Shown: in pieces, positions 2,857 to 58,600 of the stretch
How positions within the stretch are numbered: the stretch's first letter is position 1
How the letters are laid out: every line of letters begins with the position of its first letter
NCBI GenBank assembly: GCA_017626055.1
Contig: JAGAJM010000023.1
Span: 17,571-81,570, forward strand
From: a bacterium
Lineage (GTDB): Bacteria; Cyanobacteriota; Vampirovibrionia; Gastranaerophilales; Gastranaerophilaceae
DNA length: 64,000 nt
Direction: 5' to 3'
Program-made: the position numbers and the translations under genes
Notes under the pieces: model-generated
What the model was told of the DNA's origin: nothing
The model's database searches: none
Seen by the model: the letters and a program-made list of their open reading frames with translations, nothing else

Positions 2857-3879
2857 CTATGAAAGAGCTTGAGAATACATTCCCATTAGAGTTGAAATTA
2901 AGTCGTTATAAGTTTGTTTATCGGCAACACCATTCATCTGTTTACGCATAATATTGCCAGTATTATAGGCTTCTTGTTCATCTTTTAGCGCTTTTACACA
3001 AATAGATTTTATTTGAGATTTAAACGCTTCCATTCCGCCATATTTTTGAATTGTTGCCAGAGCATTTGGATCTTTTTCGTACTGCATACCTTTTAATGTT
3101 TCATCAAAAATCAAATCAAATATTGCATTGATAGTCTGCTTTTGAGTTGCAGTATCTTTGCCAAACTTCATAATTTCACCAAGTTTTTCGGGTGTAACTT
3201 TATCGGTAACAGTATCCATAAACTTGTCATAATCATCCGTGTTATTTAATGGATAATTTGCTTCTCTAACAAATGCCACTCCAGAGTCTGTAACGCCTTT
3301 ATCTGTTAATCTATCAGTAATTCGCTTCTGAATAAAGTTCATAAAACGGGCTTCAGGTGTTGGTGCATAATGTGGCATAACTTCTTTTGATTTTACATGT
3401 TGAATAACGTGGGTTATTTCGTGAGTTGTTTTATCAAGGAATGCCAATACTTCATTTTTGTTATTATAATCTACATCTGGAATAAACACATCAATATTTA
3501 TCAACTTGCCAGTTGCATCATAATTCGGTCTTGTAACTGCGGCTTTTTTCATTCCAATTTCTGGACGATTTGGTTGCTGATACTCAGACATTGAATGAAT
3601 TTTTACATTATCAACCCCTAAATGTTTTTGAATAAGTTTTTGAATTTCGCCAGCAGTAGCATTTTTAGAATCAACAAGGGCGTTCAAATCCTTACCAAAA
3701 GCTAAAGCCGCTTGTTCATTAGATGATAACTGAGTTTGAACAGTCGTTGACTCAGGTTTTACTGATGGAGTAAATGTGTCTTGCTCCAAGCCTTTAAAAG
3801 CAACTTGTGGTTGAACTGGTCTAGTTGTTACGTTTAAATAAGCTGGATTTATTCCGATTGAATTAATTTTTGATATCAT
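2857..3879 (-). CDS. Hypothetical 340-aa protein with one HExxH (HEITH) zincin-like motif and the recurrent N-terminal leader (…QVAFKG)
   Basis: SD AAGGGGA upstream of ATG; motif TTHEITHVIQH; leader MISKINSIGINPAYLNVTTRPVQPQVAFKG without hydrophobic core. Confidence 0.7.
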   Translation of the reverse strand: MISKINSIGINPAYLNVTTRPVQPQVAFKGLEQDTFTPSVKPESTTVQTQLSSNEQAALAFGKDLNALVDSKNATAGEIQKLIQKHLGVDNVKIHSMSEYQQPNRPEIGMKKAAVTRPNYDATGKLINIDVFIPDVDYNNKNEVLAFLDKTTHEITHVIQHVKSKEVMPHYAPTPEARFMNFIQKRITDRLTDKGVTDSGVAFVREANYPLNNTDDYDKFMDTVTDKVTPEKLGEIMKFGKDTATQKQTINAIFDLIFDETLKGMQYEKDPNALATIQKYGGMEAFKSQIKSICVKALKDEQEAYNTGNIMRKQMNGVADKQTYNDLISTLMGMYSQALS

Positions 3880-3960
3880 TATTTCCCCTTGATTTTATAC
3901 ATATATAAAAACAATAAATGCAAAATTTTTGCCCTTAAATTAAGTCAGAACAATAATTTA

Positions 3961-3973
3961 TTACATTATGTAA
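3961..3973. promoter_or_regulatory. Perfect 13-bp palindrome TTACAT-T-ATGTAA in the divergent promoter region between 3879(-) and 4053(+)
   Basis: Read directly; shares the ATGTAA half-site with the iterons at 4851-5357. Confidence 0.3.
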
Positions 3974-4052
3974 AAACAATCTATTTATAGATTTGCAAAA
4001 GAAATTTATAGGCGGTAATATAATTGTGTGTTTATTTTAAGGAGGTCTTGTT

Positions 4053-55780: not shown

Positions 55781-55888
55781 GGGGAGATAATGGCGAGAAC
55801 GAGCCTTTTGCGAGTTCGAACTCGTTGCTTTAACCCTTTGCGAAGAATGAGCATTAGGGATAAAGTACCTACTTGGCTCCCGCTCCAT
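55781..55888 (+). pseudogene. Decayed tRNA-Gly-like copy (no anticodon arm, about 47-nt insertion before the acceptor 3' strand)
   Basis: GGGGAGATAAT…GGCGAGAA resembles the tRNA 5' and D region. GCGAGTTCGAACTCGT matches the T-arm 16/17. CTCCCGCTCCATA is 13/13 identical to the tRNA 3' end. It cannot form a 7-bp acceptor stem. Confidence 0.45.
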
Positions 55889-55895
55889 ATAATTC

Positions 55896-57299
55896 TTATA
55901 TATTACTGTAAAAAATATTTTTGCCGTGTGAATCTAGCCCACCAGATGGTAATAACTTATTATCCAATGTAGCTTTTGTAATCATTTCTAGCCAATCCTT
56001 ACTTCTTGCAACATCTCCAAAATAAGGATAATAAAGTTCTGTGGCTAACGCTTTTTCTCCTCCTCGAACTTTAAATAATGAAATCAATGTCGTCAAATGT
56101 TTAAATGCTTCATGAGGATTTTTAATACAACTACCAATAGGAGTTAAGGCTGGGTGCGCTATTGTCATATAGCCATATTCTTGTTTTGCAATAGTATCCA
56201 TTGCATCAGACATATCCATACAATATTTTTGTAAATCTAACTTTGGTTCAAATCTTGATTGAACTCTACCTAATGTCACCAATACTGCTTTTTCTTCTTC
56301 TGGAGTTATCTTAGTTTTTACATATTCTTTCAAATAATACCAAGGATAGTTTAAACCTTCTTTTAATGTTGCTGAAAACTCTCTAGCTTCATCCATACTC
56401 AATCGAGATGCAACATCTTTAACTTGAGTATTTTGAAGTTCTGCTCTAAACTCTTCAAAGAATTTTACCGCAACATCTTTTCTTGCAACTTTTGTTGTAT
56501 CTAGAAAATCATTTAAATTTTTATCAAAAGGATTTATACAATTTACCACCATATGAATCGGGACAGGTTTTGTTAAATTATTACCCAGAACCCTATTTTC
56601 AACAGACAATTCGGTACCAAACACAACCCGTAAATTTTTATATTTTTCTGGATTTGCAGCAATAATTTTTACGGCTTCCTTACATCCATCAACTGTATCG
56701 TGGTCAGTAATTGCAATAGTAAATGGAGAATCTTCCGCCAAAACAGTCATTTTGCCTTTATTGACCTTTGCAACTTCATCCGCATATGAGGCTGCTTGAT
56801 CTAATAATTCTTGAACTGTCATTTTTCCATCAGACTTTATCGTATGATTGTGTAGTGAAATTCTAAAATCTCTATGGAAAATTCCAGTTAAATCATAACC
56901 ATCTTGAACATCTGTAAGAAGGGATTTCCCTGGGGTATATGCCTCTGGTGCATCAGCAAACTCAGACACAATCGATTTATATTCTTGTCCCCCAATAATA
57001 GAACGAATAGACATCCACTTATTTTCAGGAATACCAATAGCTTTTAGTAGTTCTTTCCTATACTCAACATCTTTTGGAAATTTCGCAGCAAAGATTTCCT
57101 CAAGCGCTTTTTCTGCCTTATGAATTTTAATATTTTTATGAATTAACAAACCTCCAATAATTGCACCAACCCCAGCCCCAACAGTTGCAACTTGTTGCAT
57201 AGCATTATTTTTATTGGCATTACTTTGTTCTGGCTCAACAGTATTGACCGAACCTTTTGACTTAAATAATATAAAATTGTTTATTGGTTGAATTTTCAT
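55896..57299 (-). CDS. PHP-domain phosphoesterase with N-terminal leader and one TM helix
   Basis: 467 aa; SLHNHTIKSDG…IAITDHDTVDG…FGTELS; TM VATVGAGVGAIIGGLLI; leader MKIQPINNFILFKSKG. The start overlaps the upstream stop (ATGA). Confidence 0.75.
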   Translation of the reverse strand: MKIQPINNFILFKSKGSVNTVEPEQSNANKNNAMQQVATVGAGVGAIIGGLLIHKNIKIHKAEKALEEIFAAKFPKDVEYRKELLKAIGIPENKWMSIRSIIGGQEYKSIVSEFADAPEAYTPGKSLLTDVQDGYDLTGIFHRDFRISLHNHTIKSDGKMTVQELLDQAASYADEVAKVNKGKMTVLAEDSPFTIAITDHDTVDGCKEAVKIIAANPEKYKNLRVVFGTELSVENRVLGNNLTKPVPIHMVVNCINPFDKNLNDFLDTTKVARKDVAVKFFEEFRAELQNTQVKDVASRLSMDEAREFSATLKEGLNYPWYYLKEYVKTKITPEEEKAVLVTLGRVQSRFEPKLDLQKYCMDMSDAMDTIAKQEYGYMTIAHPALTPIGSCIKNPHEAFKHLTTLISLFKVRGGEKALATELYYPYFGDVARSKDWLEMITKATLDNKLLPSGGLDSHGKNIFYSNI

Positions 57300-58600
57300 A
57301 AATTACCCATTAATGCCTTAATTAGTGGTGCAAACATATCTTGTCCAGGTTTACTAAAATATTTAGCGAACTCTGTTGTAAATTCTCTATTATTAGCACA
57401 AGCAGATTTGATTAAGGTTTTGATAAATCTAAACTGCTTATCCAAGTTCCACGTTGGGAATTCATAAAAAACCATATCTCTAACTACACGTTTTGGCTTT
57501 CTATCTCCCATCCTTTTTAACGCCGCTAACTGCGACAAATTAACAGATACAAATGGCCTTTCTGGCAAGCTCAAGTAACTTTTTGTACCTTTTAAGATTT
57601 CCCCTTCCCTAATTGCTTCGAGGGTAAAGCCAACATTTTTAATATTTTCTCTAGAAGGATTATAAACTCTAACAATATCATCATTCATTTTTGGGAATTG
57701 AGGACAATATTCCACCCAATAAGGATTTGCCTTTACATAATCATCCATATATGTTGCAATTCCATCATCATAATACTTATTCAAAACGGCTTGTTGTCTT
57801 TCGTCAACAGAACTTCTAAGCTCATAAGTTAGTTTTTGACGATATCTCTTTGCGGCATCTTTATCATCAATAGCTTTAGTTAGCCTTTCAATTTGTTCAC
57901 GTGTATAAACTTGAGGGAAAGCAGCCTCATCATGGTTATAACTCAACAATCTTTGATCTGTATTTGCCCACAATTTTCCTCTAAATTCATTCACTACATC
58001 AATATCATCAGAAGAATACCCAGTACCTCTCAAAATTACATAAGCCTTATCCAAATCACTACCTGGGAAAGCCTTTCCACGACCAACAGAACAAACTCCA
58101 TCATATCCTGCAACAAGAACATTATATTTACTATTAGCTAATTCTCGCTCAGATTGTTCCACTGCATTAACAAAAGTTCGCTTTATACGTCTAGATACTT
58201 CATGCAAATTTGGAAAACCTGTTAACTCTTGATAATGTCTGATAAATTGACGCTTATCAGAAGAATAATCTAATCTATCCAAAAATGCTAAATTATTTTC
58301 ACGAATTTTACTACAAGTAGAATATTCAAAGCTATCATTACCAATATCTAAATAATTACCTTTTTTAAGCTGAGAGAATAAAGTAATCGCCTCTGAACCC
58401 GAAATACTTCCATGGCGAGAAACTCCGAAATCAGTCGGATTTAGTTCCCAAGGTCTATTACCAAAAGTAATTTGTGACCTATTAGTATTTTTTGTTTGCG
58501 CTATATTATTATTTGTGAATCCAGCTTGAGTTATAATCCCTTGCGAAACCGAGTTTTTAGGCATACAAAAACTCGAATTTGTAATGCAACTAATTTTCAT
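57296..58600 (-). CDS. Pol-beta-superfamily nucleotidyltransferase-like protein (GlnD/GlnE/DUF294 flavour), leader-bearing
   Basis: 434 aa; SVGRGKAFPGSDLDKAYVIL fits G-[SG]-x9-13-D-x-D; leader MKISCITNSSFCMPKNS…QITFGN; SD AAAGGGG. Confidence 0.6.
   Translation of the reverse strand: MKISCITNSSFCMPKNSVSQGIITQAGFTNNNIAQTKNTNRSQITFGNRPWELNPTDFGVSRHGSISGSEAITLFSQLKKGNYLDIGNDSFEYSTCSKIRENNLAFLDRLDYSSDKRQFIRHYQELTGFPNLHEVSRRIKRTFVNAVEQSERELANSKYNVLVAGYDGVCSVGRGKAFPGSDLDKAYVILRGTGYSSDDIDVVNEFRGKLWANTDQRLLSYNHDEAAFPQVYTREQIERLTKAIDDKDAAKRYRQKLTYELRSSVDERQQAVLNKYYDDGIATYMDDYVKANPYWVEYCPQFPKMNDDIVRVYNPSRENIKNVGFTLEAIREGEILKGTKSYLSLPERPFVSVNLSQLAALKRMGDRKPKRVVRDMVFYEFPTWNLDKQFRFIKTLIKSACANNREFTTEFAKYFSKPGQDMFAPLIKALMGNL

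Follow-up and report, generated by a model that had tools for sequence, protein, structure and literature searches.

A two-block N-terminal leader on unrelated proteins of the Gastranaerophilales: a possible type-III-style export signal

Why do at least seven proteins with unrelated bodies begin with one and the same kind of short polar leader? The question is raised by a 64-kb stretch of contig JAGAJM010000023.1 (positions 17,571 to 81,570, forward strand; assembly GCA_017626055.1) from a bacterium of the Gastranaerophilaceae, hereafter the window, in which an original prediction had noted such a leader, starting with M-K/R-I and ending in F-x-G. Based on the analysis of related loci and large protein libraries, the leader is lineage-specific, modular, selected, fixed to residue 1 and, in the data examined, restricted to one clade. 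As to its function, we tentatively infer a type-III-style export signal read by a retained flagellar gate, a reading that may well prove wrong. The window, from a genome with 31% GC, has a GC content of 30-34% and the gene content of an ordinary bacterial chromosome, and the homologues of its proteins are labelled "Candidatus Gastranaerophilales bacterium", "Cyanobacteria bacterium RUI128" or simply "bacterium"; together with the lineage of the related loci given below, this identifies a non-photosynthetic gut melainabacterium. Translation of the open reading frames (ORFs) reproduced all seven N-termini as originally quoted; they are listed below, and each protein is named hereafter by its lower coordinate.

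3790..3879, minus strand: leader of the 340-aa HExxH protein 2857-3879; residues 1-30, MISKINSIGINPAYLNVTTRPVQPQVAFKG
4053..4136, plus strand: leader of the 136-aa protein 4053-4463; residues 1-28, MRISAIRNTNYCVANQQSCKKPNVNFNG
4477..4536, plus strand: leader of the 114-aa protein 4477-4821; residues 1-20, MNVQSISAITNTSKQNHFTG
14774..14887, plus strand: leader of the 668-aa protein 14774-16780; residues 1-38, MRILPLSYNLFLQNKIQQNHSSFTSKTGLKQDEVSFSG
33998..34045, minus strand: short leader of the 268-aa protein 33239-34045; residues 1-16, MYIDCNNYYSNNVSFG
57252..57299, minus strand: leader of the 467-aa protein 55896-57299 with its transmembrane (TM) segment and PHP-like domain; residues 1-16, MKIQPINNFILFKSKG
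58460..58600, minus strand: leader of the 434-aa nucleotidyltransferase (NTase)-like protein 57296-58600; residues 1-47, MKISCITNSSF...NRSQITFG

The concern that the true start codons might lie downstream of the leader was not borne out, since a ribosome-binding site of the GGAG/GGGG type is located 6-12 nt upstream of six of the seven starts; 14774 is without one. Within the window, the 4053 leader, preceded by AAGGAGG, has the top score with both the hidden Markov model (HMM) and the position-specific scoring matrices (PSSMs) described below. The N-terminal block of the 2857 leader is shifted by two residues (MI-SKINSI). The proposed F-x-G ending is off-consensus in 55896 (LFKSKG) and 4477 (NHFTG). 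All-vs-all BLASTP detected no body similarity among the seven carriers save a weak match between 4477 and 4053 that reaches past the leader, the other matches being confined to the leader, and the earlier statement that the bodies are mutually unrelated thus stands.

The anatomy of the leader emerged from carriers pooled from 1.4 Mb of related loci, for which the overlapping gene pair 55896-58600 served as the anchor. Two blocks were recognized: an N-block with the consensus M-[KRQ]-[IV]-x-[PSAC]-[IV]-x-[NS] and a Phe block with the consensus (P-L-x-x-D-T)-[VIP]-[SN]-F-G or F-[KRS]-G, in which Gly at F+1 and Gly at F+2 are alternative registers (F-G or F-x-G) and do not form a G-G pair. The spacer between them is free in both sequence and length, rich in Asn, Gln and Ser, basic, and almost without Asp or Glu. 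The Phe is located at residue 9-81 (median 46) in the 57296 family and at residue 11-64 (median 33) in the 33239 superfamily, and the shortest leaders have 13 residues, e.g. MLVNSIRPVAFKG and MNIGRVSGINFKG. Leaders are enriched in Asn (1.9x), Gln (2.4x), Ser (1.6x) and Pro (1.4x) and depleted in Glu (0.24x), Asp (0.40x) and Leu (0.59x), which amounts to a 2.5-4-fold depletion of the acidic residues; Asp and Glu together make up 3-4% of leaders versus 14-15% of bodies (4.2% versus 14% in the 57296 family). The tails are basic, with +2 to +7 across the first 40 residues. In AlphaFold models, the predicted local distance difference test (pLDDT) score of the 57296 protein, computed from a deep alignment, is below 50 for residues 1-46 and above 90 for the body, and in the 33239 protein the score is 55 over the first 10 residues, while the body again exceeds 90. 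The leader is therefore predicted to be disordered, without packing on its cargo.

If the leader is functional, its orthologues should conserve it, and this was found for the 14774, 57296, 55896, 2857 and 33239 families, with the leader kept in orthologues as distant as 27% identity. It stands at the head of at least three large and about 20 small families. Among orthologues of 14774 down to 45% identity, M1, I3, S7, Y8, Q17, Q18, D32, F36 and G38 are invariant. The 57296 family comprises 115 homologues, of which 111 are full length; 87 of the latter begin with M-x-[IVL] and 70 with M-[KRQ]-[IV], and M1 and F46 are the sole invariant residues in the first 50 columns of the alignment. Across the 75-member 55896 family, the N-block M[KR][IV]xP[IV] is kept and the Phe block is degenerate. 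The 2857 leader, M[IL]S[KR]INSIG...VAFKG, occurs in 10 of 10 orthologues at 78-98% identity and is kept in part (...SF[KR][GS]) in relatives at 44-48% identity. Clustered at 50% identity, the 33239 superfamily amounts to at least 104 clusters within a library of 1.8 billion proteins, and almost every one of them carries the leader; the Phe is invariant in a 49-sequence alignment, and 88 representatives show a strong preference for Ser at -1 and for Val, Ile or Pro at -2 from it. In this superfamily the residues directly after F-G, AMKKSQF, are also strongly conserved and run directly into the body. The superfamily is uncatalogued and carries the conserved box AMKKSQFxGxDLxVVEKFKAPIEKFN.

Whether such N-termini exceed what an AT-rich proteome would yield by chance was assessed with two PSSMs, because rigid regular expressions lose half of the carriers. 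To avoid circularity, the PSSMs were trained on the 57296 family alone and scored on all other families, with internal-Met positions and shuffled sequences as decoys. An 18-position leader HMM gives true leaders only 7-18 bits locally, equivalent to an E-value of at least 900 among 5.8 billion sequences. In the first locus set, the N-block expression matched 101 of 1115 N-termini (9%) compared with 0.28% of internal Met positions, and PSSM positives among the other families amounted to 1.7-2.7% of N-termini compared with 0.1-0.2% of the decoys. A second, independent locus set was anchored on FlgG, a protein unrelated to any carrier; 6 of its 228 families were positive, all convincing by eye, and among unique proteins the rate was 0.85% versus 0-0.14% of decoys. 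As a natural AT-rich control, 300 kb of DNA at 30-35% GC from Bacillus anthracis pXO1 and Bacillus phage G (319 genes) were used. The combined motif was found in none of the 319 control genes and in 21 of 913 Gastranaerophilales families (Fisher p=0.004), and the leader is thus commoner than expected for AT-rich DNA. In the two independent Gastranaerophilales locus sets it heads about 2-3% of protein families. When species-representative genomes were scanned with one carrier family, 79 loci were recovered, all from metagenome-assembled genomes of the Gastranaerophilales type or from Caenarcanum, some of these loci carrying plainly wrong taxonomic labels. Compared with composition-matched shuffles, the Phe block shows only a modest cross-family excess in the small-family sample; it was accepted because it is conserved within families, the Phe being the best-conserved leader position inside the large ones.

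The cargo is diverse. The HExxH motif ascribed to the 2857 protein is present, whereas the PHP assignment of the 55896 protein is sub-threshold (PHP/RNase RNM matches) and the NTase assignment of the 57296 protein is limited to a G-S-D-L-D motif and weak Foldseek matches. The C-terminal half of the 33239 body is weakly GNAT-like by AlphaFold and Foldseek, and its long paralogues end in leucine-rich repeat (LRR)-like repeats that match Recep_L_domain. Searches of the cargo bodies against the PDB by sequence and by fold gave only the weak NTase-like and GNAT-like resemblances. Other soluble carriers include an Amidohydro_2 protein, an AAA+ ATPase and a tetratricopeptide repeat (TPR) protein, a GT5 glycogen-synthase-like carrier also bears a TM segment, and many small carriers are without annotation. 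Members of the 55896 family have a single TM helix 30-70 residues downstream of the leader, and because the Lys plus Arg balance around this helix is neutral (3.4 versus 3.4), its topology leaves the question of location unsettled. Taken as a set, the LRR-tailed paralogue swarms and the NTase-, GNAT-, PHP-like and HExxH proteins look effector-like.

The original prediction could place the leader in no known signal class, and this stands for the classes with a hydrophobic core or a fixed processing site, as their defining features were not found on testing. No Pfam or NCBIfam model covers the leaders, and a literature search found no description of the motif for Melainabacteria. A Sec signal was rejected because the called leaders have at most seven hydrophobic residues per 12-residue window and are polar throughout, and the window does contain genuine Sec leaders, at 22341 and 37194. 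Inspection of the seven N-termini confirmed the absence of a Sec/Tat core and of a lipobox: the Cys residues present lack a preceding hydrophobic region, and neither the seven leaders nor the consensus contains a twin Arg followed by a hydrophobic stretch. Prepilin signals were excluded because the Phe precedes the Gly and there is neither a hydrophobic helix nor a G|FTLxE site in the leaders; real prepilins (K-x-G-F-T-L-A-E-V-L) occur in related loci. Double-glycine leaders of the C39/PCAT type share with this leader the N-terminal position, the missing hydrophobic core and the Gly end, and they can head large proteins in cyanobacteria. Their consensus LSxxELxxIxGG is acidic with small residues at -1 and -2, whereas the present leader is depleted in acidic residues, with Lys (41%), Ser or Arg at -2 and Phe at -3, and the surroundings of carrier genes showed no C39 transporter. 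Targeting peptides of bacterial microcompartments and encapsulins, as well as TonB and Tol boxes, were ruled out by sequence features. Plastid transit peptides are likewise N-terminal, variable in length, unstructured, basic, acid-poor and rich in hydroxylated and amide residues, with loose F-G-[hydrophobic]-K motifs; they offer an analogy only, possibly a convergent one. Both lineages are related to cyanobacteria.

What the original prediction overlooked is the style of type III secretion (T3S) and the retained gate. Classical empirical rules for T3S signals ask for acid-poor first residues and an aliphatic residue or Pro at position 3/4. An acidic residue is absent from the first 12 positions in 81% of leader representatives versus 42% of other proteins, and an aliphatic residue or Pro stands at position 3/4 in 100% versus 49%; the leader thus follows the composition and position rules, being N-terminal, acid-poor, Ser/Thr/Asn-rich and disordered. 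As in T3S signals, it occupies the extreme N-terminus, has no hydrophobic core or obligatory cleavage, is rich in Ser, Thr, Asn, Gln, Pro and Ile and poor in Asp, Glu and Leu, and heads unrelated cargo, with LRR proteins and enzymes among it. The N-block also resembles the N-termini of Yop effectors, of Firmicute FlgM and of flagellin, a likeness that serves as a lead only. To our knowledge, classical T3S signals have no conserved sequence, whereas the leader has a consensus at both ends, is confined to one order-level clade and occurs also on membrane proteins. Judged from sequence features, it would act most like a T3S signal, set apart by having a true consensus and, as a second element, a Phe-centred block.

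The closest known architecture is that of early flagellar rod and hook subunits, in which an N-terminal hydrophobic signal is combined with an FlhB-docking FxxxPhi motif (Bryant et al. 2022, PMC8983047). Here too, two elements, one N-terminal and one downstream and Phe-centred, are joined by a spacer without fixed sequence; unlike the early flagellar signal, the leader has a [VIP]-[SN]-F-(x)-G block, a spacing down to about 5-10 residues and non-flagellar cargo. A possible reader is provided by published gene inventories. Four non-motile Gastranaerophilales keep FlhA, FlhB, FliP, FliR, FliI and FlgB/C/G and mostly FliJ and FliE, and lack FliC, FliD, FlgE, FlgK, FlgL and MotAB (Soo et al. 2014, Table S5). 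Non-motile members keep only early-type flagellar substrates, along with FlhB. According to a 2026 preprint, full flagellar sets occur in about 25% of Gastranaerophilales genomes, and the remainder keep flhB, fliI and flgG, a remnant "postulated to be involved in extracellular secretion". Gut Melainabacteria are without a type I secretion system according to the literature. In the flagellin-less Lysobacter enzymogenes OH11, export of non-flagellar toxins by its flagellar type III secretion system (T3SS) has been shown experimentally (PMC7688988). A like pattern of gene retention, with the gate kept and flagellin lost, is found among the Gastranaerophilales. The Cia and Fed proteins of Campylobacter and the basal bodies of Buchnera are further instances of repurposed flagellar systems. 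A shared, sequence-defined leader has not been described for Lysobacter or the other repurposed systems, unlike the situation in the Gastranaerophilales.

A type-III-style export signal was ranked first because of the combination of a T3S-like signature, a retained gate, a two-element flagellar signal as a model, the Lysobacter precedent and the lack of a type I system. The tag would be a disordered N-terminal targeting peptide with two recognition elements and a freely evolving spacer, and its reader would be the flagellar-type export gate (FlhA, FlhB, FliPQR and FliI) kept after loss of the flagellin, hook and motor genes. The Phe block may first dock the unfolded N-terminus, after which the extreme N-terminus may engage the gate. 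That the tag (M-K-I-x-P-I ... D-T-V-S-F-G) is the first sequence-definable address label of a flagellum-derived export machine, with the retained FlhA/FlhB/FliPQR/FliI-rod core forming a dedicated secretion system and with the LRR-tailed paralogue swarms and the NTase-like, GNAT-like, PHP-like and HExxH proteins among its substrates, is possible and should be held with real doubt.

Several observations weigh against export through the gate. The early flagellar gate recognition motif (FxxxPhi) is not reproduced, as F+3/F+4 are hydrophobic in 16-19% of cases compared with a background of 31%. A TM segment follows 30-80 residues downstream in at least 9 of 28 carrier families, some of them multi-pass, which T3S cargo seldom shows, and the AAA+, GT5, NTase-like and GNAT-like carriers, which depend on cytoplasmic cofactors (nucleoside triphosphates, nucleoside diphosphate sugars or acetyl-CoA), would be useless outside the cytoplasm. 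The earlier view of a short leader shared by diverse cargo is upheld, with export or processing as its putative meaning, and the membrane and cofactor-dependent part of the cargo speaks against plain secretion. By annotation, the reduced gene sets lack FliF, FliG, FliM and FliN (Soo et al. 2014), and no hook, needle or L/P rings are present. Many leaders have 13-20 residues, shorter than the 19-24 residues needed between signals in Salmonella FlgD, a threshold established for that protein only, with the median Phe position at 33-46 in the two large families. No flagellar or T3SS genes lie within the 64-kb window, so that gate retention is drawn from order-level literature; flagellar clusters are present in related loci, and leader genes are no denser beside them (2.6% of families) than elsewhere. 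The N-block with a polar tail is by itself nonspecific, occurring in 3 of the 319 AT-rich Bacillus control genes (about 1%). No shared promoter or 5' untranslated region, sigma-28 type included, was visible upstream of the carrier genes in the window. A hint in the other direction is a conserved protein of about 90 residues encoded between a rod-binding (FlgJ-like) gene and flgN-flgK, the usual position of flgM, in several related loci (L063 2592-2867, L096 13412-13690, L116 13076-13348 and others); its N-terminus is leader-like (M-x-x-x-I ... N-A-F-K-S), and its C-terminal motif YG-x-x-YGRSVIA is invariant. It gave no FlgM or other match against Pfam, NCBIfam and PDB profiles, and its link to FlgM is a positional guess.

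Three other explanations compete with a type-III-style signal. The leader could act inside the cell without export, as a pair of linear motifs forming a docking, tethering or degron tail for a common cytoplasmic partner, which could be a protease/unfoldase, a scaffold, a membrane site or a chaperone. A disordered tail with two short anchor points and a free spacer is consistent with this, as is the cytoplasm, or at least a cytoplasmic N-tail, that the AAA+ ATPase, GT5, Amidohydro_2 and multi-pass proteins need; the basic tails fit the cytoplasmic side by the positive-inside rule, and the need for a free N-terminus recalls N-terminal recognition by ClpX and N-degron recognition. However, acid depletion, richness in Asn, Gln, Ser and Pro and an aliphatic position 3 are the signature of secretion signals and not of known degrons, and the LRR-tailed, fast-diversifying paralogue swarms resemble surface or effector proteins. 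We consider such a tail unlikely on balance, while giving it serious weight. The leader could instead be a pro-peptide or sorting tag that is cleaved off on a dedicated non-flagellar route, with a specific peptidase cutting after F-G or F-x-G, by analogy with double-glycine leaders, the Prp-cleaved extensions of L27 and phage capsid proteins, and the capsid-targeting sequences of phage T4. In keeping with a cut site, it stops sharply at Phe-(x)-Gly without cross-family conservation beyond, the border between disorder and order in the AlphaFold model of the 57296 protein coincides with F46/G47, and in minimal cases the first strand of the fold follows the leader directly, as in the Amidohydro_2 protein (MLVNSIRPVAFKG|QIIDAHGH); its failure to match any catalogued signal model also fits a separate route. 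By contrast, the conservation of AMKKSQF after F-G into the body of the 33239 superfamily indicates that the Phe block is more than a mere cut site, Lys, Arg, Ser or Thr at -2 is unlike the small residues of double-glycine sites, and membrane and NTP-dependent cargo is as awkward for this route as for the flagellar one. Co-occurring secretion or processing machinery, which the original prediction had envisaged, did not appear: in about 160 loci, no dedicated genes adjoin the carriers and no peptidase or transporter gene recurs beside them. A cleaved tag is, in our judgement, improbable.

The third explanation denies the leader any function and sees in it a consequence of AT-rich coding, a preference for MKI starts and wrongly called start codons. 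MKI, MKV and MKK are indeed the commonest starts in the Gastranaerophilales genomes examined, and both the share of AT-rich Bacillus genes with an N-block and polar tail and the weak Phe-block excess in small families agree with it. AT bias cannot account for the composition, since the depleted Asp, Glu and Leu have AT-rich codons (GAT, GAA and TTA). Across 27-45% identity, positions 2, 3 and 6 and the Phe stay conserved beside a freely varying spacer, families without detectable body similarity have the extended block P-L-x-x-D-T-V-S-F-G in common, and the control-gene comparison and the ribosome-binding sites at annotated starts also speak against an artefact, which is very unlikely. A type-III-style export signal accordingly remains the reading that we tentatively prefer.

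Further carriers and look-alikes were found in and around the window, and two features of the window deserve separate mention.

55896..58600, minus strand: carrier gene pair with a 4-nt overlap (ATGA) and a leader on both products; homologues adjacent in most of the 79 species representatives
2567..2839, plus strand: possible eighth carrier, uncertain; MNLSGIRLGNG...TIIFSG passes the PSSMs and is then followed by a hydrophobic stretch

The overlap of the two genes and the adjacency of their homologues suggest that the NTase-like protein 57296 and the membrane-anchored PHP-like protein 55896 may form a functional pair. The order of the two homologues is reversed in one clade. Among the weaker look-alikes named earlier, 2567 scores as a leader by PSSM, and 22924 and 23607 do not. 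A further carrier lies just beyond the window in locus L001 (3089-4453, MQILPVSINLL...PLAVDTVSFTG), and its tandem paralogue is without a leader. A leader variant with Leu at position 2 (MLTISPIRFNN...SPSFGIA) is found on three tandem paralogues of about 235 residues (L075 14048-16204), showing that carrier genes have expanded locally in a distant Gastranaerophilaceae genome.

Other observations concern the neighbourhood. A direct repeat of about 170 nt (22711-22881 and 23394-23563, 81-89% identity) lies directly upstream of the neighbouring, functionally unassigned ORFs 22924-23352 and 23565/23607-24941; with its GGAACC...GGTTCC hairpin, T-run and subsequent AT-rich, promoter-like stretch, it resembles a terminator/promoter cassette that has been duplicated. 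The cluster 7776-12538, adjoining carrier 14774, encodes a DUF2997 protein (67-68 aa), a 420-aa familyless protein, an AAA+ ATPase (AAA, AAA_lid_3), a Fer4_12 protein and an HHH_3 membrane protein, and is conserved at L003 3081-7768, in a relative with a 45%-identical 14774 orthologue. The proteins encoded at 54365-55498 and 30908-31756 are distant paralogues (BLASTP E=5e-9 over about 200 aa), both lacking a leader and a Pfam family. At 24992-26105, three small membrane proteins in tandem have a common G-x-H-R-[FI]-Y-T-G motif and are TM2-domain-like by eye. The 83-aa ORF 55637-55888 (minus strand) overlaps tRNA-Gly(GCC) at 55670-55744 (plus strand) and is probably spurious.

The Gastranaerophilales are widespread, uncultured, non-photosynthetic gut relatives of cyanobacteria, and about three quarters of their genomes keep the gate without flagella. 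A leader on 2-3% of families provides a concrete list of candidate substrates and a peptide for reporter fusion. If it is a T3S signal with a consensus, this would be unusual, since such signals are sequence-less, and it would aid studies of cargo recognition; should the machinery be unrelated to type III export, the leader could count as categorically new. Even with another function, as a cleaved leader or a docking tail, it would be an uncatalogued, clade-wide sorting or regulatory module on unannotated proteins. If it is an address tag, what an uncultured lineage of the human gut secretes, or deploys as effectors, could be read from sequence.

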